64,000 bases of DNA from a phage, in sequence record PZ445523.1. The stretch is one strand, 5' to 3'. The translations under genes were made by a program, and so were the position numbers. The notes under the pieces are model-generated. The model did not search any database and had not been told where the DNA came from. It worked only from the letters and a program-made list of their open reading frames with translations. Position 1 is the first letter of the stretch, and each line of letters opens with the position of its first letter. Positions 8,026 to 62,087 of the stretch are shown one piece after another.

Positions 8026-8053
8026 GGGACCTTCGGGTCCCTTTAGTTGTTTT
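8026..8053 (+). terminator. intrinsic terminator after gene 23
   Basis: GGGACC-TTCG-GGTCCC hairpin followed by TTTAGTTGTTTTT. Confidence 0.65.
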
Positions 8054-8058
8054 TATGG

Positions 8059-9380: not shown

Positions 9381-9407
9381 AAAGGGACCTTTCGGTCCCT
9401 TTTATTT
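9381..9407. terminator. bidirectional terminator between convergent genes 24 and rnlB
   Basis: AAAGGGACC-TTTC-GGTCCCTTTTATTT: hairpin flanked by A-run and T-run. Confidence 0.65.
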
Positions 9408-10410
9408 AGCTTACCAATTCAATCCAAGCCGGACGAAGTACATCTTGTACCATTTTAACTAATTCCTTCTTAATCAAAGAAGGATTATCCGCTTGAGTTA
9501 GAGTAATACCTTCACGAGAAGTTTCTTCCAAAATATCTTGAACAGTTAGCCCCATCACCTTTCCAAAATCCTTTGGACCAATTTCGCCAATTTTAGAAAT
9601 AACGTTATTTACTCGGTTCAGTGTAACGTAACAAGCTAAAATTCCCACCAATTTGTTATCAGCTTCTGATAGCTCAACTTTAGCTTTAATAGGCTTATCA
9701 GACTTTTTCTTTTCACTAAATTTAGAATTCTTGCATTTGATAGCGACACGATTTCCATTACGAAGCCAAGAAGGATAACAAGGTTTCAATACATATCCTT
9801 CAGCGGTAAATACTTCGCCTTTTGCTTCGGCATTCCAAACGCATTTATTTGCATCAACTAATCCAGCATGGTCTACTGTAAAATTATAATCTTGGACGAC
9901 AGAATCTAAATCATTTGGCAATTTAATAAGCTCTTCAAATTTACCGCGACCTAAAAGTGGAGCCATTTTAAATTTAAATGTATTGCAGAATGATTCCATC
10001 ATATAATCGTCGACATAAGTCACATCACCACTTTCTGTAGTGACAATAATGTCAAATACATAAAAATCTTTATCGCCATAATCGACATTCTTCTGAATGC
10101 CAGGTCCAGCGAATTCGCCAAAGACTTGATAAGATACAACCGCTGAGGTTTCCATAATATCTTGTACTGCTTTAATGGAATCAGCGTAATTCTTTAGAAT
10201 AATTTCATACCCAAAGAAATCTTCAGCAGGAAGAATAGGACCAGTACGTTTAGCGCAAGTTACTTTATCACGCTCAATAATCAATGAGAAATTTGTGCCG
10301 TGAATCTTTTCACGAGCTACCCACTCCCCACCAGTCAATCCCAAGCTATAAAGTTTTTCAATAAATTTAGAGTTGTAATGATTTTCAAGACTGCTATACT
10401 TTTTAAACAT
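9406..10410 (-). CDS. rnlB: RNA ligase 2
   Basis: 334-aa ORF with nucleotidyltransferase motif EKIHGTN (KxHG lysine); T4 Rnl2 size and position after gene 24. Confidence 0.85.
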
Positions 10411-21926: not shown

Positions 21927-22891
21927 TGTATTCTTTAGAGGAATTTAATAATCAAGCAATAAACGCAGATTTCCAACGTAATAATATGTTTAGCTGCGTT
22001 TTTGCGACAACTCCATCAACTAAAAGCTCTTCGTTGATAAGTTCAATTAGCAACTTTTCTTATAATAACTTGGGCCTAAATTCAGATTGGTTAGGATTAA
22101 CTCAAGGCGATATTAATCAGGGAATTACCACGCTAATTACAGCTGGCACACAAAAACTGATAAGAAAATCAGGGGTTAGTAAATATCTTATTGGTGCCAT
22201 GAGTCAACGTACAGTTCAAAGTTTATTAGGCTCATTTACAGTTGGTACATATTTAATTGACTTCTTTAACATGGCATATAACTCATCTGGATTGATGATA
22301 TACTCTGTAAAAATGCCAGAGAATAGATTATCCTATGAAACTGACTGGAACTATAATTCTCCTAATATTCGTATAACTGGGAGAGAATTAGACCCTTTGG
22401 TTATTTCATTTAGAATGGATTCAGAAGCTTGTAACTATCGTGCAATGCAAGACTGGGTTAACTCTGTTCAAGACCCAGTAACTGGATTGCGTGCTTTGCC
22501 GCAAGATGTCGAGGCAGATATTCAGGTTAATCTTCATTCTCGTAATGGATTGCCTCATACTGCGGTGATGTTCACTGGATGCATTCCAGTGTCAGTGAGC
22601 GCTCCTGAGTTATCATATGATGGAGATAACCAAATAACTACATTTGATGTTACTTTTGCATACAGAGTCATGCAGGCTGGAGCAGTTGATAGACAAGCTG
22701 CGCTTGAATGGCTTGAATCTGCTGCTATAAATGGTATTCAAAGCGTTCTCGGAAATAGTGGAGGTGTTACTGGACTATCTAATTCGCTTTCACGACTTAG
22801 TAGATTAGGAGGGACTGCAGGAAGCATTTCAAACATTAATACTATGACAGGGATTGTCAATTCACAGAGTAAAATATTAGGAGCAATATAA
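21926..22891 (+). CDS. 54: baseplate tail tube initiator gp54
   Basis: 321-aa ORF, T4 gp54 size and order; terminator hairpin downstream. Confidence 0.85.
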   Translation: MYSLEEFNNQAINADFQRNNMFSCVFATTPSTKSSSLISSISNFSYNNLGLNSDWLGLTQGDINQGITTLITAGTQKLIRKSGVSKYLIGAMSQRTVQSLLGSFTVGTYLIDFFNMAYNSSGLMIYSVKMPENRLSYETDWNYNSPNIRITGRELDPLVISFRMDSEACNYRAMQDWVNSVQDPVTGLRALPQDVEADIQVNLHSRNGLPHTAVMFTGCIPVSVSAPELSYDGDNQITTFDVTFAYRVMQAGAVDRQAALEWLESAAINGIQSVLGNSGGVTGLSNSLSRLSRLGGTAGSISNINTMTGIVNSQSKILGAI

Positions 22892-22895
22892 CAAT

Positions 22896-22913
22896 GGGGA
22901 CCTTTCGGTCCCC
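22896..22913. terminator. hairpin between convergent gene 54 and the alt-downstream ORF
   Basis: GGGGACC-TTTC-GGTCCCC. Confidence 0.55.
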
Positions 22914-22919
22914 ATATTT

Positions 22920-23210
22920 TTATTTACGGAATGAAATGAAAGCAGAAACTGAAGCAACTAAACTGTCTTCAATATAAACTTCAATTTTTACCGGAGCTTC
23001 TGACTCAAATTTACCTGTTACTACACCCTGAAAAATACTTTCAGTCTGTTCTGGCTTTGAAAAATTTTCAGAAGGAAAAATTCCGAACTTTTTATCTGTT
23101 CCAAAAATTTTAATAAATTCATCGTAAACTGCTTCATTAAAAGCATTATCAGCAGGAATAACGCCTTCAACTACAAGTTCTTGACCTAAAAAGCGCAAAG
23201 AAGATTTCAT
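22920..23210 (-). CDS. hypothetical protein (T4 alt.-1 position)
   Basis: 96-aa ORF with its own early-type promoter and RBS GAGGAA. Confidence 0.5.
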   Translation of the reverse strand: MKSSLRFLGQELVVEGVIPADNAFNEAVYDEFIKIFGTDKKFGIFPSENFSKPEQTESIFQGVVTGKFESEAPVKIEVYIEDSLVASVSAFISFRK

Positions 23211-23241
23211 TTTGTGTTCCTCATGTTATGTCAGTAAGACT

Positions 23242-23271
23242 ACTATAACACAACATAAGGAACTTGTAAAC
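23242..23271 (-). promoter_or_regulatory. T4-type early promoter (GTTTAC -35, TGTTATAGT extended -10) for the ORF downstream of alt
   Basis: GTTTAC, 18-nt spacer, TG-n-TATAGT, then RBS GAGGAA; leader identical to the alc promoter copy. Confidence 0.6.
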
Positions 23272-25331
23272 TACATTTTGAACTTTTTAGACATTCCGTT
23301 GATGTTAACCAAAGAAGCTAAGATTTGAGAAACTTCATTTTCCTCTTCTTTTGATTCTTCTACAAGGAATTGATTAAATCCAGTCATTGGACGAACTTCA
23401 CCAGTTTCCATTAAATGGTCGCCATCATATACTGATTCTTCTAATTGTTCAGAAGGAGGAACGATTGTACCTTCGATTAGATACTTGTTATAAGCAGTTT
23501 CTTTCATAAAGTACGTACTTACTTTATTAATCTTTAGTAAAATTCCACGCGGTAGAATAACTTCAGCTTCTGTTGCTATTCCGAGACTTCCTGGATATAC
23601 AACATTAACTTTATGAGCTCCATCAATTGCCCATCCTATTTGAACTTTAACGTATTCAGGATTTTCTTTATACGCTCTTATTTCGTTTGGATTAATAGTT
23701 ATTCCTTCTTCATTTTTATCAACTGTTAATTCATTGCGAGCTTCTGGTTCTAAAAGACCAATACCAGCATGTGTAATTCCAAAACGTCCAAAAATGATAG
23801 GAGTTAAAGAAGTAGATACAAAATTTCTGAAATAGAACACTTTATTTTTAACTAGTGCTTCGTATATAGGAGCAGTCATACTTTGAGCACGATAAACTGT
23901 GATGCCTTCCGGTATACGGTCACCATTTTCAAAAGCTGAATCTAAATTATTTATAGCAGATTCAATTTCTTTTTCACTCATTACATCATATCGTTCTGGA
24001 TTGTAACGACCTAAAAGAAGATTATTAATGTCTGTATATCCTGAACCACAATATTCTCTAATACCGCGCTTTTGTGATGGAGTATATTTAGAACCATCAC
24101 GAGCAATAGTAATATCAATCATTGGACCTGCACCAATTCCGGAAAAGCTATAAATCATTCGTTTGAGGAATTTAGTTTTTGCTGCATTCCAGGCATTTTT
24201 AGTTATTTCTCCCCAGACTTCATCTGGTTGCCCTTTACGAGTTTTATTATGTTTATCAAGCCAATTATCTTTATATTCTTCAAAGAATTTATTAATAGCT
24301 GCTGCGTATTTCTCTAAACATTTTATTGAAGTAGTTGGTTCATTTTTGATTGCGTTAAAAATTACATCTTTAATTTTTTCTGAAACTTCATCAACCTCAC
24401 TTTTTGAAAAGAATTTATAGTCATAGTGAAGTTCATTCGCAGTTCCTTCAGCAATAATTTTTGCTGCCTTAGTTTTAGAAGCTAATGAATTAATTCCAAG
24501 TTTCATTTCTTCTGCTTCGGGAATTAAAGGAGCGGTAGCAGGTTTATTGAAATTAGCTGCGGTAGATTCATACTTCTGGAATAATTCACTTTCAAATCTA
24601 GAAGATTCCAATGATTGACTTTGCGCAATTGCTCTACGGGAAATTTTAACTTTAACGATTACAGCTTGGTCAGTACGTTTATCATTTTCTTGTGCAATAG
24701 ATGCTGCAATTGCCTCATTTTTAGTTACTTGAGCTCCAGTATCTTTATTGATATAAACATCACCGACCTTCGATTCAACTTTAGTAAAGAGCTCAGTACT
24801 AATTTCCGGAACTCCTGGAATGTCTTCTAGTGATACATTTTTGCGATGTATAAGAATATATGCATACTTTTTATCGTAATCCCAGAGTTCCTTAAGAAGG
24901 ACGTATCTACCACCTGAACGACTACGGATAAGTCTATCAGCAATAACTTGAATTTGTCGAGCTTGTCCAGCAGTTTTAGACTTAAGAATACGAAGCATAC
25001 AAGCATCAATTTTATACTGACGCATAGTTTGCATTGCAACAGTAAAAACTGAATTGATATAATTAATTGGGCTTGGACCAAGACCTTTTAATTTAGCAAT
25101 TGAACCTTTAGCAGTTAATGTAAAAGGAACAATATGCATCATTTTATCACCCATTTTTAAATCGCGATTAGTATCACCTCCAGATGTATAGGTACATAAA
25201 CGAAAGCCTGGTTGTTCAATTGCGTCATCAACATGAACTGAAAAAATTTGCGGTATTTTCTTCTTTGGATTTAAGTTTGTAATCGGAAGAGTAGTATCTT
25301 CGTCAAATAATTCTGTAATAAGTTCCATCAT
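23271..25331 (-). CDS. alt: Alt ADP-ribosyltransferase (virion-packaged, modifies host RNA polymerase)
   Basis: 686-aa ORF, T4 Alt is 682 aa, position between 54 and 30; TATAAATA on minus strand 21 nt upstream. Confidence 0.85.
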   Translation of the reverse strand: MMELITELFDEDTTLPITNLNPKKKIPQIFSVHVDDAIEQPGFRLCTYTSGGDTNRDLKMGDKMMHIVPFTLTAKGSIAKLKGLGPSPINYINSVFTVAMQTMRQYKIDACMLRILKSKTAGQARQIQVIADRLIRSRSGGRYVLLKELWDYDKKYAYILIHRKNVSLEDIPGVPEISTELFTKVESKVGDVYINKDTGAQVTKNEAIAASIAQENDKRTDQAVIVKVKISRRAIAQSQSLESSRFESELFQKYESTAANFNKPATAPLIPEAEEMKLGINSLASKTKAAKIIAEGTANELHYDYKFFSKSEVDEVSEKIKDVIFNAIKNEPTTSIKCLEKYAAAINKFFEEYKDNWLDKHNKTRKGQPDEVWGEITKNAWNAAKTKFLKRMIYSFSGIGAGPMIDITIARDGSKYTPSQKRGIREYCGSGYTDINNLLLGRYNPERYDVMSEKEIESAINNLDSAFENGDRIPEGITVYRAQSMTAPIYEALVKNKVFYFRNFVSTSLTPIIFGRFGITHAGIGLLEPEARNELTVDKNEEGITINPNEIRAYKENPEYVKVQIGWAIDGAHKVNVVYPGSLGIATEAEVILPRGILLKINKVSTYFMKETAYNKYLIEGTIVPPSEQLEESVYDGDHLMETGEVRPMTGFNQFLVEESKEEENEVSQILASLVNINGMSKKFKM

Positions 25332-32904: not shown

Positions 32905-32935
32905 TATAATATCACAACTCTACCGTAAAGTAAAC
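32905..32935 (-). promoter_or_regulatory. early-type promoter for the 176-aa cd-region ORF
   Basis: GTTTAC, 18-nt spacer, TGATATTAT; -10 lies in the loop of a 7-bp inverted repeat. Confidence 0.45.
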
Positions 32936-35008: not shown

Positions 35009-35358
35009 TTAGAAAGGTCCTGGATGTCTTCTGCGAACTTGTTGAAGGAGTTGTTGATTTGTTTTTCAACCAATCCTGGCTTATGAGCCACCACATCCGC
35101 CTTCTTTGCATCTTTGCGCAGTTTTTCATTTTCACGCTCAATAGCAGCAATTGCCTCACGATTTTTATTATTCATCGCATCAATATAATTATACTGAATT
35201 TGCAAATTATTTAACGCTAAGGCGTTTTCATTGGCCGTTTTTGTAATTTCAGTAACTGATGTTTCTAATCTTTCTACCTTATTTTTTAAAATAATAGATG
35301 TTCCGCCAAATGCTATTACAAGTAATAGCAATCCAGCTGTAAAATTACTTACATGCAT
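35005..35358 (-). CDS. inner-membrane spanin-like protein (Rz-like, T4 pseT.3-like)
   Basis: 117-aa ORF, N-terminal TM helix then coiled-coil-like region; overlaps the lipoprotein ORF. Confidence 0.6.
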   Translation of the reverse strand: MHVSNFTAGLLLLVIAFGGTSIILKNKVERLETSVTEITKTANENALALNNLQIQYNYIDAMNNKNREAIAAIERENEKLRKDAKKADVVAHKPGLVEKQINNSFNKFAEDIQDLSK

Positions 35359-35855
35359 AAAGTTTTAATAACCTCTACAATATCGTCTTGAGAAAGACCG
35401 TTAATTAAAATATGGTGTTCAGCTGGAGATTTAGAAATTTTAAAGCATGCCTCAACATCTTCTGCCATATCCGATGCACTACGATTTGGATTACTAATTC
35501 CAAGACGATGCTTTCCAGTCAAAGGATTAACAATAATGTAGCATTTACAACTATTGATATGAACATTAGGTTGAGTCTGATTAATGAACACTTCACAATC
35601 ATACTTAGCGAGTTGATTTTCTAAAAAGACTTTCATCTCTTCAACCGCATCAGGAAGCATATCACGGGCTTGCTCAAGACGACGATTTCGATATTCTTTA
35701 ATGGTCGTTTTCCGCTTGACTTGCTTAGCTAAATCTTTCTTAAGATCGGTGATATATCCAACTCGACGATTTCCTTTAAATACAGAAATCCCATCTGTAG
35801 TATCACCGTATGCTTCAACGACCATTTCTGTAGTAATAAGTTGTAAATCCATCAT
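35349..35855 (-). CDS. alc: Alc transcription terminator / host shutoff protein
   Basis: 168-aa ORF at T4 alc position between spanins and rnlA. Confidence 0.7.
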   Translation of the reverse strand: MMDLQLITTEMVVEAYGDTTDGISVFKGNRRVGYITDLKKDLAKQVKRKTTIKEYRNRRLEQARDMLPDAVEEMKVFLENQLAKYDCEVFINQTQPNVHINSCKCYIIVNPLTGKHRLGISNPNRSASDMAEDVEACFKISKSPAEHHILINGLSQDDIVEVIKTLCM

Positions 35856-35883
35856 AAAGTCCTCATGTTATGTCAGTAAGACT

Positions 35884-35913
35884 ACTATAACACAACACGA
35901 GGGACTTGTAAAC
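35884..35913 (-). promoter_or_regulatory. T4-type early promoter for alc (second copy of the duplicated cassette)
   Basis: GTTTAC, 18-nt spacer, TGTTATAGT, RBS GAGGA then ATGATG of alc. Confidence 0.6.
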
Positions 35914-35916
35914 AGC

Positions 35917-37504
<1,588 letters not shown>

Positions 37505-44399: not shown

Positions 44400-44429
44400 A
44401 TAGTATCACACTACTACCCTGTTGTAAAC
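44400..44429 (-). promoter_or_regulatory. early-type promoter upstream of frd.3-position ORF
   Basis: GTTTAC, 18-nt spacer, TGATACTAT. Confidence 0.45.
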
Positions 44430-45090: not shown

Positions 45091-45131
45091 TATTTTCCTC
45101 TTTAATTATTAGCAGTATTGTCGATAGTTGT

Positions 45132-45161
45132 ATAGTACCATGGAAGGACAAGGATGTAAAC
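45132..45161 (-). promoter_or_regulatory. early promoter downstream of the gene 32 terminator
   Basis: GTTTAC, 18-nt spacer, TGGTACTAT. Confidence 0.5.
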
Positions 45162-45192
45162 AGTTTTGTGAAAAAATTTTTGAAATAAAAAA

Positions 45193-61988: not shown

Positions 61989-62029
61989 TTTCTAATCTCC
62001 GTAATTCTGTATCAGTAGTTGATAGTTGT

Positions 62030-62059
62030 ATAGTACCACAGTATGCTTTGGTTGTAAAC
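62030..62059 (-). promoter_or_regulatory. early promoter for motA
   Basis: AT-rich UP region, GTTTAC, 18-nt spacer, TGGTACTAT; sequence nearly identical to the 45132-45161 promoter. Confidence 0.6.
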
Positions 62060-62087
62060 CATTTTGTGAAAAAAATTAAAATAAAAA

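Follow-up and report, generated by a model that had tools for sequence, protein, structure and literature searches.

A candidate early-promoter hairpin over the Shine-Dalgarno sequences of alc and alt.-3, probably copied between the two loci in an ancestor of Tequatrovirus

Introduction

In bacteriophage T4, the transcripts that reach the genes e, soc, 49 and I-TevI from upstream promoters are long and lock the Shine-Dalgarno (SD) sequence or AUG in a helix, while a promoter within or just after the 5′ strand of the structure gives rise to transcripts that lack this strand and are well translated (PMC3014915). The internal promoter of these genes is a late promoter, TATAAATA, and expression is delayed until late in infection (PMC3014915).

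Promoter-early stem-loop (PeSL) elements form a second related group (Arbiol et al. 2010, PMC2839356; Comeau et al. 2014, PMC4122927). PeSLs are intergenic, start at the stop codon of the upstream gene and carry a sigma-70-like early promoter, which in the PST/T4 PeSLs reads TTTACW-N17-TAYWAT (PMC4122927). They are repeated within a genome and serve as recombination sites that shuffle regulatory regions and genes (PMC2839356, PMC4122927), and recombination between PeSL cassettes has been shown experimentally (PMC2839356). The 2010 paper treats terminator or attenuator function only and never mentions translation or ribosomes (PMC2839356); neither is mentioned in the accessible part of the 2014 paper (PMC4122927). 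A third case is the T-even internal-protein (IP) locus, where conserved regulatory or leader segments lie on either side of unrelated genes and are used for exchange among related phages (Repoila et al. 1994, via PMC4122927).

Here, we analysed a 64,000-nt stretch of phage DNA (sequence record PZ445523.1; hereafter, the window) from a Tequatrovirus with ~97% identity to T6. Two cassettes in the window, one upstream of alt.-3 and one upstream of alc, are nearly identical. We consider it fairly probable that each is a promoter/hairpin module that gates the SD of its gene, and that the module was copied by recombination in an ancestor of Tequatrovirus, most likely from alc to alt.-3.

Results

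Two copies of one cassette

The first-pass annotation of the window had described a near-identical direct repeat, which is indeed present but lies one base lower than had been given (Table 1). On the plus strand, the copies match over 38 of 38 bases and then over 13 of 16, exactly as described, which makes 51 of 54 in total; they are 12.6 kb apart. Genes and promoter are on the minus strand, where both copies read GTTTACAAGT(T/C)CCT(T/C)(A/G)TGTTGTGTTATAGTAGTCTTACTGACATAACATGAGGA. Each cassette spans the region between the upstream stop codon and the SD GAGGA, the last element before the ATG. The stretches upstream of it, AAAAATTATAAAAAATTTATCC at the alc copy and CTAAAAAGTTCAAAATG at the alt.-3 copy, both fall within the preceding coding sequence. 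With up to 3 mismatches allowed, the 27-nt part designated as leader has two occurrences in the window and no more (0.00 expected from shuffles), and no third copy of the cassette was found in the window within 3 mismatches. The downstream genes had been called unrelated, in line with BLASTP, which gives no alignment between the products of alt.-3 and alc.

Table 1 Features of the two cassettes and their surroundings (positions in the window unless an accession is given)
Feature	Position	Strand	Remarks
Copy 1, 54-nt cassette (−35 through SD)	23218-23271	−	Upstream of alt.-3; T4 orthologue NC_000866 123040-123093
Copy 2, 54-nt cassette	35860-35913	−	Upstream of alc; identical to T4 NC_000866 136283-136336
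alt.-3	22920-23210	−	96 aa, Pfam DUF5498; served by copy 1
alc	35349-35855	−	168 aa, Pfam ALC; served by copy 2
alt-like ADP-ribosyltransferase gene	23271-25331	−	Upstream of copy 1; source of read-through RNA
rnlA (RNA ligase 1)	35917-37041	−	Upstream of copy 2; source of read-through RNA
−35 TTTACA, copy 1	23265-23270	−	Preceding G (23271) is the last base of the TAG stop of the alt-like gene
Extended −10 TGtTATAGT, copy 1	23242-23250	−	Consensus scan; hexamer ends at 23242
Predicted transcription start, copy 1	23235 (±2 nt)	−	A 7 nt past the −10, on the hairpin loop side; predicted from the −10
SD GAGGA of alt.-3	23218-23222	−	4/4 SD bases paired (predicted), partners are cassette positions 12-15
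Predicted hairpin, copy 1 read-through RNA	23216-23263	−	5′ arm 23247-23263 (spacer), 3′ arm 23216-23232 (leader, SD, AC)
−35 TTTACA, copy 2	35907-35912	−	rnlA stop TAA at 35917-35919, 3 nt (GCT) upstream of the G of GTTTAC
Extended −10 TGtTATAGT, copy 2	35884-35892	−	Consensus scan
Predicted transcription start, copy 2	35877 (±2 nt)	−	Predicted from the −10 position
SD GAGGA of alc	35860-35864	−	Paired in the predicted hairpin
Predicted hairpin, copy 2 read-through RNA	35857-35907	−	5′ arm 35889-35907, 3′ arm 35857-35874; 22 bp, one bulged C
Predicted starts, T4 equivalents	NC_000866.4 ~123057 and ~136300	−	

Promoter and predicted transcription start

A consensus scan identified the same promoter at both sites, namely TTTACA, a 17-nt spacer and TATAGT preceded by TG, with 10 of 12 matches. 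The GTTTAC, 18-nt spacer and TGTTATAGT of the first-pass annotation describe this same element. Considering that the −10 is TATAGT, transcription is expected to start about 7 nt downstream, at the A of ACUGAC. With such a start, AGUCUU, the first 6 nt of the leader, are probably not transcribed from the cassette promoter. The sequence that had been proposed as a transcribed leader is common to both copies, but its first six nucleotides probably do not belong to the transcript.

The T4 ‘uber’ early promoters (UP / −35 / TGn / −10; PMC2988021) are similar with respect to the GTTTAC-type −35, the TGn, the near-consensus −10 and the A/T-rich upstream stretch. In the cassettes, however, the A/T-rich region sits in the coding sequence of the preceding gene, and the sequence of the spacer is constrained by its predicted pairing with the leader.

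A predicted hairpin over the Shine-Dalgarno sequence

The promoter spacer is predicted to pair with the leader and the SD, a complementarity that we report here as new. The read-through RNA of copy 1 folds with −25.7 kcal/mol (z −4.69, and z −6.1 in a separate scan) and that of copy 2 with −27.3 kcal/mol (z −3.94, and z −5.2 in a separate scan); in either case, none of 200 shuffles folded as well. Both predicted hairpins comprise 21-22 bp and bury the SD, and CGUGUUGUG/CAUAACAUG form a part of the stem outside the SD itself. In copy 1, an inner 4-bp helix with a GUCU loop spans the −10 and the start-site region. RNA that begins near the predicted start is predicted to be unstructured in copy 1 (−1.0 kcal/mol, z +0.5) as well as in copy 2 (−1.8 kcal/mol, z −0.6).

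All three differences between the copies of the window are located in the 5′ arm, and the pairing with the locus-specific 3′ flank is kept or better (C.A to U-A, C-G to U.G and G.U to A-U). For either spacer, the flank of its own locus is the better pairing partner (−21.9 versus −18.3 and −20.1 versus −19.2 kcal/mol). Across Tequatrovirus, 92.2% of cells are paired for the alt.-3 hairpin (11 distinct variants) and 99.4% for the alc hairpin (8 distinct variants). C-to-A changes break an SD pair in the alt.-3 variants ECO07P5 and SsoM_113, T6 alc has a U.U mismatch in the hairpin, and a G-to-A change in the −10 hexamer breaks the inner 4-bp helix in 6 of the 11 alt.-3 variants. Pair counting detected no two-sided covariation within Tequatrovirus. 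As the 3′ arm is invariant within the genus, it is uninformative on covariation, and the high degree of pairing neither supports nor contradicts the structure. The sense strand of Tequatrovirus folds better (−23 to −26 kcal/mol) than the antisense strand (−15 to −18 kcal/mol) because of G.U pairs. A search against Rfam returned no match in the window at the gathering score; near copy 1, the minus strand gave only sub-threshold matches to generic miRNA hairpins.

The hairpin at alc in other lineages

Per-sequence folding with shuffles predicted a spacer-to-SD hairpin at alc in 16 of 19 distinct cassettes from other lineages (z −2.8 to −6.7). The sequences of the arms vary from lineage to lineage, for example CTCCATTTGG/CCAAATGGAG, TCCTCATTTTGTTG/CAACAAAATGAGGA and CCTCGTTTGTT/AACAAACGAGG. 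To compare them free of an alignment, each spacer was paired either with its own translation start region or with those of other lineages. Cognate spacers and start regions had a mean of −19.2 kcal/mol versus −11.5 kcal/mol when swapped across lineages, and none of 20,000 permutations reached the observed sum. Of 13 cassettes, 12 have each of the four scored SD bases paired with spacer positions 9-15, and the remaining one has three of the four paired. RNAalifold recovered no structure from a MAFFT alignment of alc cassettes of different genera, since MAFFT had set GAGG-type and GGAG-type arms out of register. Taken together, these comparisons suggest that the design has been conserved at alc across many genera through compensatory change.

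The alc cassettes of Mosigvirus and of PS2-like phages are without an SD hairpin, which indicates that some lineages can do without the gate proposed below. Outside Tequatrovirus, the antisense strand folds as well as the sense strand, and the element may be a DNA-level palindrome there.

Distribution and relationship of the two copies

T4 carries the cassette at both loci, with 53 of 54 identical bases. The same holds for the 10 GenBank Tequatroviruses and the IMG/VR contigs examined, in which blastn-short found 30 copies with strictly locus-specific flanks. BLAST returned 588 records with 1087 places, and all 51 Tequatrovirus rows among the matches listed had exactly 2 places each. A scan of IMG/VR with the loose 15-mer TATAGTAGTCYTACT yielded 119 stretches, nearly all of them chance matches, with promoter context only at T4-like and Mosigvirus loci. 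The duplication is a fixed, genus-wide feature rather than an assembly artefact, and for annotation the two sites are the early promoters of alt.-3 and alc in a T4-type phage.

An early promoter is present at both loci in every genus examined. The alc and alt.-3 cassettes are near-identical in Tequatrovirus only (94-98% over the 54-nt core). For the whole intergenic cassette, defined as the sequence from the −35 to the base before the ATG, the Tequatrovirus pair shares 85-89% identity versus 58-79% for other cassette pairs. A cassette of the alc type at alt.-3 likewise occurs in Tequatrovirus only; the alt.-3 cassettes of Dhaka-, Gapriver-, Mosig-, Karam- and Marfavirus have a small palindrome within the spacer instead. 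Given this different type of alt.-3 cassette outside Tequatrovirus, alc was probably the donor. In Tequatrovirus alt.-3, the bases past the SD (ACACAAA) have kept a resemblance to their alt.-3 counterparts in other genera (AAACAAA). Cross-genus identities of the cassettes are too close (63-73%) to give a direction, so the proposed direction of transfer rests on the structural type.

We propose that the near-identity arose by ectopic recombination or gene conversion in an ancestor of Tequatrovirus, most likely with the alc cassette as the source and the gap before alt.-3 as the target. We would place the crossovers in motifs common to such cassettes, with GTTTACA on the 5′ side and CATGAGGA on the 3′ side. 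Both the direction and the mechanism are read from present-day sequences. The comparison with other phages thus speaks for the transfer of a promoter cassette by recombination, which had been one of the two suggestions of the first-pass annotation. In one genome (L165/L180), the leaders of alc and alt.-3 are identical over 27 bases on the 3′ side while their spacers differ, a pattern that is probably the result of a second, partial exchange. The ndd.1 cassette of Mosigvirus has a leader like that of Tequatrovirus alt.-3, which hints at a further exchange.

Discussion

A possible translational gate

According to our model, each copy would be a compact intergenic module with a strong sigma-70 early promoter (TTTACA, 17-nt spacer, TGn, TATAGT). 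Read-through RNA, from rnlA into alc or from alt into alt.-3, would contain both arms and form the 21-22 bp hairpin that buries the SD. The downstream gene would consequently be poorly translated from read-through transcripts. RNA from the embedded promoter would begin in the loop, lack the 5′ arm and leave the SD free, which would tie the translation of Alc and Alt.-3 to their own early promoters and thereby to the first minutes of infection. The start site is predicted from the −10 element and the translational effect from folding. Read-through is plausible because the stretch from the upstream gene to the cassette is free of terminator-like sites at both loci. Our literature search found no translation or RNA-structure experiments on alc or alt.-3.

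Translational coupling, in which a ribosome ending at the upstream stop codon melts the hairpin, is unlikely by our own estimate from the geometry of the ribosome, which on termination covers or melts roughly 5-10 nt past the stop codon. The SD-pairing bases lie ~11-17 nt past it, and thus beyond its reach.

Alternative explanations

The stem-loop could instead attenuate or terminate upstream transcripts, so that the downstream gene is driven by its own promoter only and the burial of the SD is incidental. The PeSL211/210 stem-loop lowered lacZ expression to a similar degree as the rrnB T1 terminator did (PMC2839356), the hairpins of the cassettes are long and stable, and two other early promoters of the window (44428 and 32934) have −10 stem-loops that are clear of the SD (z −3.1 and −3.8). 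However, both hairpins lack a U-tract downstream (GGAACACAAAAUG; GGACUUUAUGAUGG), and a scan for intrinsic terminators, i.e. a G+C-rich stem with a U-run, found none at either cassette; the nearest one is bidirectional and located after alt.-3 (22894-22915). Moreover, wherever the hairpin is present at alc, the SD is part of its 3′ arm, which a pure terminator would not need. We therefore regard termination as the sole function as unlikely, while termination and SD burial are not mutually exclusive. A trans-acting factor as the reason for the shared sequence is far less probable still. Candidates would be RegB, RegA or a dimeric DNA-binding protein that silences both promoters via the inverted repeat at the −10. 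The stretch ACATAACATGAGGA is invariant in 30 of 30 copies and common to two unrelated genes, the element is almost palindromic, with its centre in the −10 and start-site region, and the shut-off of early promoters has been described as not completely understood (PMC3014915). Against this, RegB cuts GGAG or GGAU in unstructured intergenic translation start regions with an A-rich 3′ context (PMC3014915), and the leaders, which read AUGAGGAACACAAAAUG and AUGAGGACUUUAUG, contain neither motif (GAGGAAC, GAGGACU); the RegB target considered in the first-pass annotation is thus not supported. RegA sites are A+U-rich, overlap the AUG and are without structure (PMC3014915). In Tequatrovirus, G.U pairs make the structure strand-specific, and in other genera the arms are entirely different while their complementarity is kept, which is the signature of base pairing and not of a conserved operator. 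The annotated ‘shared RNA-level regulatory site’ accordingly holds insofar as the leader is the 3′ arm and the spacer the 5′ arm of a predicted hairpin, but not as a site for a trans-acting factor.

With regard to the origin of the likeness, we give hardly any weight to convergence without duplication, by which the T4 early-promoter consensus and a common SD would suffice. T4 early promoters do share a consensus that extends beyond the −35 and −10 elements (PMC2988021), and unrelated cassettes are already 58-79% identical. Yet the copies are identical over an unbroken run of 38 bases and at 51-53 of 54 positions in total, other genera have different sequences at these two loci, and the Tequatrovirus matches listed have exactly two places per genome. 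Within the window, the leader has more than 3 mismatches to every other early promoter, and these other five are different all along the spacer and leader; had all early promoters shared the leader, the first-pass annotation would have read the repeat as consensus and not as duplication, but they do not. A more serious alternative, though one that we still consider somewhat unlikely, is that frequent ongoing gene conversion and exchange among co-infecting phages keep the copies alike, rather than a single ancestral copying event with purifying selection thereafter. The two loci have polymorphisms in common (spacer G/A, −10 T/C, AGT/AAT, and CTT/TTT after the −10), recombination is frequent in T4 and measurable between PeSL pairs (PMC2839356), and the partial exchange in the L165 lineage as well as the Mosigvirus ndd.1 cassette would fit. 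On the other hand, the variants are not consistently shared by the copies of one genome (wV7, CrRp10 and the window), and the shared changes are all transitions at change-tolerant loop positions, which makes parallel mutation plausible. Moreover, 54 bp reportedly approaches the minimum that T4 needs to recombine homologously with good efficiency (Singer et al. 1982).

Relation to described systems and implications

Having weighed these alternatives, we return to the gated module copied between alc and alt.-3. The cassettes show the traits of PeSLs in their intergenic span from stop codon to SD, their sigma-70-like early promoter (by sequence match) and their stem-loop, a 21-22 bp hairpin over spacer, −10 and leader with z −3.9 to −6.1. 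The stem-loop differs from that of PeSLs in that it spans spacer to SD, encloses the −10 and the predicted start and buries the ribosome-binding site. Because the copies are 12.6 kb apart and flank essential genes, they cannot serve as an excisable mini-circle pair, unlike PeSLs. With the gates of T4 e, soc, 49 and I-TevI the cassettes have in common that the SD is paired in the predicted read-through RNA of both copies. The late promoter is absent from the cassettes, whose internal promoter is of the early sigma-70 type. Here it is the spacer of an early promoter that serves as the 5′ arm, and the predicted effect is reversed, with expression confined to the early period. The cassette would therefore be a variant of this hairpin class, and the element as a whole probably belongs to the PeSL class of mobile regulatory cassettes and would work like the T4 gates. 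Compared with the IP locus, where genes are swapped between conserved flanks, the regulatory segment appears to have been copied between two fixed, conserved genes.

More tentatively, and as a view that may well prove too broad, we suggest an early promoter that is itself a translational gate, with its spacer doubling as an anti-Shine-Dalgarno sequence. It would be conserved at alc, would have been copied between loci at least twice, and would set output by where the transcript starts and not by the amount of RNA; PeSL stem-loops might then in part be start-site-dependent translational switches. If the gate works, it would account for the restriction of Alc, a blocker of host transcription, to the first minutes despite ongoing upstream transcription. 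It would also add an early-promoter version to the classic late-promoter hairpin gates, and give PeSL stem-loops a translational role beside the transcriptional and recombinational ones proposed for them. For phage engineering, an altered spacer or a new upstream promoter is predicted to change the translation of the downstream gene. For genome evolution, the cassettes would offer a clean example of a regulatory module that moved between fixed genes, with crossovers in shared short motifs.

Finally, the leader also contains an AUG (AUGAGGA...), which in both copies starts a mini-ORF of 4-5 codons whose UGA overlaps the real AUG. We rejected a functional role for this mini-ORF, which has no SD of its own and whose AUG is missing in several genera (L152, L161, L166), and regard it as a by-product of the arm sequence.

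An early promoter cassette duplicated throughout Tequatrovirus

The window belongs to Tequatrovirus, with ~97% identity to T6 and RB27 over 15.5 kb, and no record identical to it was found. The direct repeat described in the first-pass annotation exists and has the identity reported there (51/54; on the plus strand 38/38, then 13/16), although its positions lie one base lower than had been stated (see table). Both copies read, on the minus strand, GTTTAC-AAGT(T/C)CCT(T/C)(A/G)TGTTGTGT-TATAGT-AGTCTTACTGACATAACATGAGGA, and every gene in the cassette region lies on this strand. A consensus scan recovered the early promoter proposed for each copy (TTTACA, 17-nt spacer, TATAGT preceded by TG; 10/12 matches), and the alt.-3 and alc proteins encoded downstream are indeed unrelated.

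Positions of the two cassette copies and of the genes behind them in the window
Feature	Position	Strand	Remark
Copy 1	23218-23271	minus	precedes alt.-3
Copy 2	35860-35913	minus	precedes alc
alt.-3, 96-aa ORF	22920-23210	minus	Pfam DUF5498
alc	35349-35855	minus	Pfam ALC

The repeat begins exactly at the G of GTTTAC in both copies. In copy 1, this G completes the TAG stop codon with which the upstream alt-like gene ends; in copy 2, it lies 3 nt (GCT) past the TAA stop codon of rnlA. At the other end, the repeat stops right after GAGGA; the spacers between the Shine-Dalgarno sequence (SD) and ATG are locus-specific (ACACAAA for alt.-3, CTTT for alc), as is the sequence beyond the repeat. The 27-nt leader occurs twice in the 64-kb window at ≤3 mismatches, where shuffles expect 0.00 occurrences. 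The window's five other early-promoter-like cassettes differ from it in both spacer and leader, so the repeat is not a leader common to all early promoters, which would have made it a consensus. An AUG within the leader (AUGAGGA...) opens a mini-ORF of 4-5 codons (23208-23228 and 35850-35870, minus strand); in each copy, its UGA overlaps the true start codon (AUGA). This mini-ORF lacks its own SD, and its AUG is missing from several other genera.

In T4 (NC_000866), the cassette is 53/54 identical and precedes alt.-3 at 123040-123093 and alc at 136283-136336. By BLAST, an 81-nt query centered on the copy 1 region matched 1087 places in 588 phage records, with exactly two places per Tequatrovirus record (51/51 rows among the matches listed). 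Given that the cassette stands at both loci in the Tequatroviruses compared, the duplication is a fixed, genus-wide feature. In 30 copies, drawn from the window and T4, from IMG/VR contigs, and from 10 additional phages in GenBank, GTTTACAAGT, GTGTTGTGTTA, TTACT, and ACATAACATGAGGA are invariant. Variation was observed in the -10 hexamer (TATAGT, TACAGT, TATAAT, TACAAT), the bases just past it (AGTCTT, AATCTT, AATTTT, AGTTTT, AGACTT), a few spacer positions, and one base of ACT(G/A/T)AC.

A predicted hairpin that pairs the promoter spacer with the SD

In read-through RNA, i.e., transcripts entering from rnlA or the alt-like gene, the cassette is predicted to fold on itself. Copy 2 would form 22 bp, AAGUCC(C)UCGUGUUGUGUU..AGUA[GUCU]UACU GACAUAACAUGA GGACUU, at -27.3 kcal/mol (z -3.94; tighter segment z -5.2), and copy 1 would form 21 bp at -25.7 kcal/mol (z -4.69; tighter segment z -6.1); none of 200 dinucleotide shuffles of either copy folded as well. 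The predicted hairpin top holds the -10 hexamer and the start site, expected at the A 7 nt past TATAGT (23235 and 35877), and all four scored SD bases (GAGG of GAGGA) are predicted to pair with spacer bases. RNA from the expected start would retain the 3' arm only and shows almost no predicted structure (-1.0 and -1.8 kcal/mol, z ~0).

The two hairpin arms make up the invariant parts of the 30 copies; variation falls mostly at the top of the structure and otherwise at four positions in the outer part of the 5' arm. All three differences between the window's copies lie in the 5' arm: one C to U converts a C.A mismatch opposite the alt.-3-specific flank (GGAAC) to U-A, another converts C-G to U.G, and a G to A converts G.U to A-U. 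Because of these differences, each spacer pairs best with the 3' region of its own locus (-21.9 vs -18.3 and -20.1 vs -19.2 kcal/mol). Within Tequatrovirus, 92.2% (alt.-3) and 99.4% (alc) of cells were paired, compared to 25-58% with partners slid; two-sided covariation was absent in this genus because the 3' arm never varies. Pair-breaking variants include C to A in ECO07P5 and SsoM_113 and U.U in T6 alc, and the inner helix is broken in 6/11 alt.-3 variants. Tequatrovirus sense RNA is far stabler than antisense (-23 to -26 vs -15 to -18 kcal/mol) due to G.U pairs; outside this genus, the two strands fold equally stably. The module matched no Rfam family at the gathering score.

Conservation of the predicted pairing across genera

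We collected the rnlA-alc and alt-alt.-3 intergenic regions of other genera from GenBank records and protein-guided IMG/VR searches. In every lineage collected, both gaps span ~58-63 nt and carry a GTTTAC-type early promoter right behind the upstream stop codon. At alc, a spacer-to-SD hairpin was predicted in 16/19 distinct cassettes (z -2.8 to -6.7), with arms CTCCATTTGG/CCAAATGGAG in Karamvirus-like phages, TCTCCTCAT/ATGAGGAGA in Dhakavirus, and TCCTCATTTTGTTG/CAACAAAATGAGGA, TCCTCATCAG/CTGATGAGGA, and CCTCGTTTGTT/AACAAACGAGG in the compared stretches L150, L156, and L166, respectively. Mosigvirus and Serratia PS2-like alc cassettes lack this hairpin and have only a small palindrome within the spacer (z ~0).

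RNAalifold returned no structure for a MAFFT alignment of the alc cassettes across genera because the arms were left out of register. We therefore used an alignment-free test, computing the duplex energy of every spacer with every translation start region. Cognate pairs averaged -19.2 kcal/mol and swapped pairs -11.5 kcal/mol; the cognate partner ranked top for 8/13 spacers, and the observed sum was reached by 0/20,000 permutations. The extended identity coincides with a predicted promoter-enclosing, SD-burying hairpin, which is conserved at alc across genera by compensatory change.

At alt.-3 of Kanagawavirus-like phages (L140, L192-L194), the spacer CTCGAATGAACG is predicted to pair with the start codon and first codons, AUGCGUUCAUUCAUUCGAG, and not with the SD (-20 to -30 kcal/mol, z -3.2 to -5.9), which would be the same logic with another target.

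Origin of the duplication

The proposal that the cassette was transferred by recombination is supported by the near-identity of the alc/alt.-3 pair in Tequatrovirus and by a different alt.-3 type elsewhere. Tequatrovirus alc and alt.-3 cassettes share 85-89% identity from the -35 to the base preceding ATG, and 94-98% over the 54-nt core; other cassette pairs, orthologous or not, share 58-79% over the whole cassette. In Dhaka-, Gapriver-, Mosig-, Karam-, and Marfavirus, the alt.-3 cassette has a palindrome within the spacer, e.g., CCACAAGGATGTGG or GCACAAGGAAGTGC, and no SD pairing (z ~0). By sequence, the Tequatrovirus cassette belongs to the alc type, sharing CCTC(A/G)TG.TGTG.TA, CTTAC, and AACATGAGGA with Dhaka-like alc cassettes. 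Past the SD, its alt.-3 leader (ACACAAA) still resembles the alt.-3 leaders of other genera (Gaprivervirus: AAACAAA). Most simply, the Tequatrovirus ancestor would have received a copy of the alc cassette in its alt.-3 gap; the junctions would fall in motifs already common to both cassettes, GTTTACA and CATGAGGA.

Further exchanges are indicated by two other lineages. In a Dhakavirus-like IMG/VR contig (2706795356; L165 547-615 and L180), the leaders of alc and alt.-3 are identical over 27 bases at the 3' end, ACCTTACACAAACATGAGGAGAACATT, up to ATG and including the SD-to-ATG spacer, and the promoter spacers differ, which points to an independent, partial exchange between the loci. The Mosigvirus cassette before ndd.1 (L010 1483-1543, Shigella phage Shf125875; also L011, L017, and L104) carries TATAGTAGTCCTACTGAAACATGAGGAACACAAAATG and from -10 to ATG matches the Tequatrovirus alt.-3 leader at 87% identity; the match takes in the alt.-3-specific ACACAAA / ACACAAAATG. 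Its predicted hairpin differs, with the spacer paired to the -10 and start-site region and the SD free. This may reflect cassette exchange between genera and between loci.

Gene conversion between the two Tequatrovirus loci could be continuing, as identical polymorphisms occur at both among the 30 copies. However, copies within one genome do not consistently share variants, and a single transfer followed by selection is thus at least as likely.

A proposed start-site-dependent gate and its alternatives

The most likely mechanism is an SD gate that depends on where transcription starts. Read-through transcripts from rnlA or alt would contain both arms and hide the SD of alc or alt.-3; a scan of both copies found no terminator-like site between the upstream gene and the cassette. 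Transcripts begun at the embedded early promoter would lack the 5' arm and expose the SD, confining alc and alt.-3 translation to the period of early-promoter firing. As Alt is a late product destined for packaging and rnlA (gene 63) is still expressed in the late period, such a gate would be useful.

The same logic is known from T4 e, soc, 49, and I-TevI: the SD or AUG is masked in the long early RNAs, translatable RNA comes from promoters placed within the 5' strand region, and lysozyme synthesis is ~100-fold lower on structured RNA (PMC3014915). In our predicted case, the internal promoter is an early sigma-70 and not a late promoter, and translation would be limited to the early-promoter period.

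The stem-loop might instead attenuate transcription from upstream, as shown for one PeSL (promoter-early stem-loop; PMC2839356), but the hairpins have no U-tract and the SD lies regularly within the stem; attenuation would therefore be a subsidiary or an added function. The arms differ in sequence from genus to genus yet stay complementary, which makes a conserved protein operator unlikely, and the suggested RegB site finds no support, as the cleavage motif GGAG/GGAU (PMC3014915) is absent from both leaders. Our analysis shows the promoter match, the predicted fold with its significance, and the covariation; the start site and translational effect are both inferred.

In the PeSL accounts of PMC2839356 and PMC4122927, these mobile regulatory cassettes combine an early promoter with a stem-loop that either lies between -35 and -10 or overlaps -10; a stop codon upstream and an A/T-rich stretch also belong to them, as do an SD and start codon at the 3' end. 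They are described there as repeated and recombining with one another, with the stem-loop read as terminator/attenuator and recombination site; the T4/PST promoter is given as TTTACW-N17-TAYWAT (PMC4122927). The alc/alt.-3 module has this structure and is an ordinary conserved part of T4-type genomes, a member of the described class. Translation and ribosomes are mentioned neither in the full text of PMC2839356 nor in the consulted part of PMC4122927. Our analysis adds that the extended identity corresponds to a predicted SD-burying hairpin and that comparison gives a direction of transfer, which together make clear, cheap experimental predictions.

Neighboring features

Two other early promoters on the minus strand have strong predicted stem-loops around the -10, AGGGUAGUAGUG...UACCCU (-35 at 44428; z -3.1) and GGUAGAGUUGUG...AGCUCUACC (-35 at 32934; z -3.8). 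Their spacers are predicted to pair with the first transcribed bases, not the SD, and both are PeSL-type. The early promoter pair 45120-45179 / 62018-62077 is 78% identical over 60 nt, a stretch that takes in the A/T-rich segment upstream as well as TGGTACTATACAACTATC, which surrounds the -10 and start site. The promoter at 62058 lies before a gene whose first bases, ATGTCTAAAGTAACTTACA, match the motA qPCR primer given in a paper on T4.

Only one alt-like gene, of 686 aa (23271-25331), lies directly upstream of alt.-3; its counterparts are a tandem pair of paralogs, alt and alt.-2, in T6-like phages, and alt with the alt.-1 and alt.-2 fragments in T4. For most relatives, alignment to 22700-23700 ends at ~23573; KAW1E185, which likewise has one alt gene, and NIC06P2 are the only ones to align across this point. 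This suggests a deletion by recombination between tandem paralogs. A terminator-like hairpin, GGGACCTT(T)CGGTCCC, occurs at 8026-8056, 9384-9414, and 22897-22927, and the last of these three copies, at 22894-22915, is a bidirectional terminator between gene 54 and alt.-3.

In the T4-like Escherichia phage Ge15 (PP359696.1; L125 10021-11055), an insertion whose annotation is transposase InsC/InsD sits in the gene 30.x region, between the two cassettes; such an insertion is not usual in virulent phages whose DNA is modified. In Shigella phage SP18 (L144 5072-5822), alc is partly duplicated: an N-terminal fragment, alcb, comes first and alca second. The early promoter cassette stands before alcb, while alca has just a short TGAGGAAAATATT leader in front of it.
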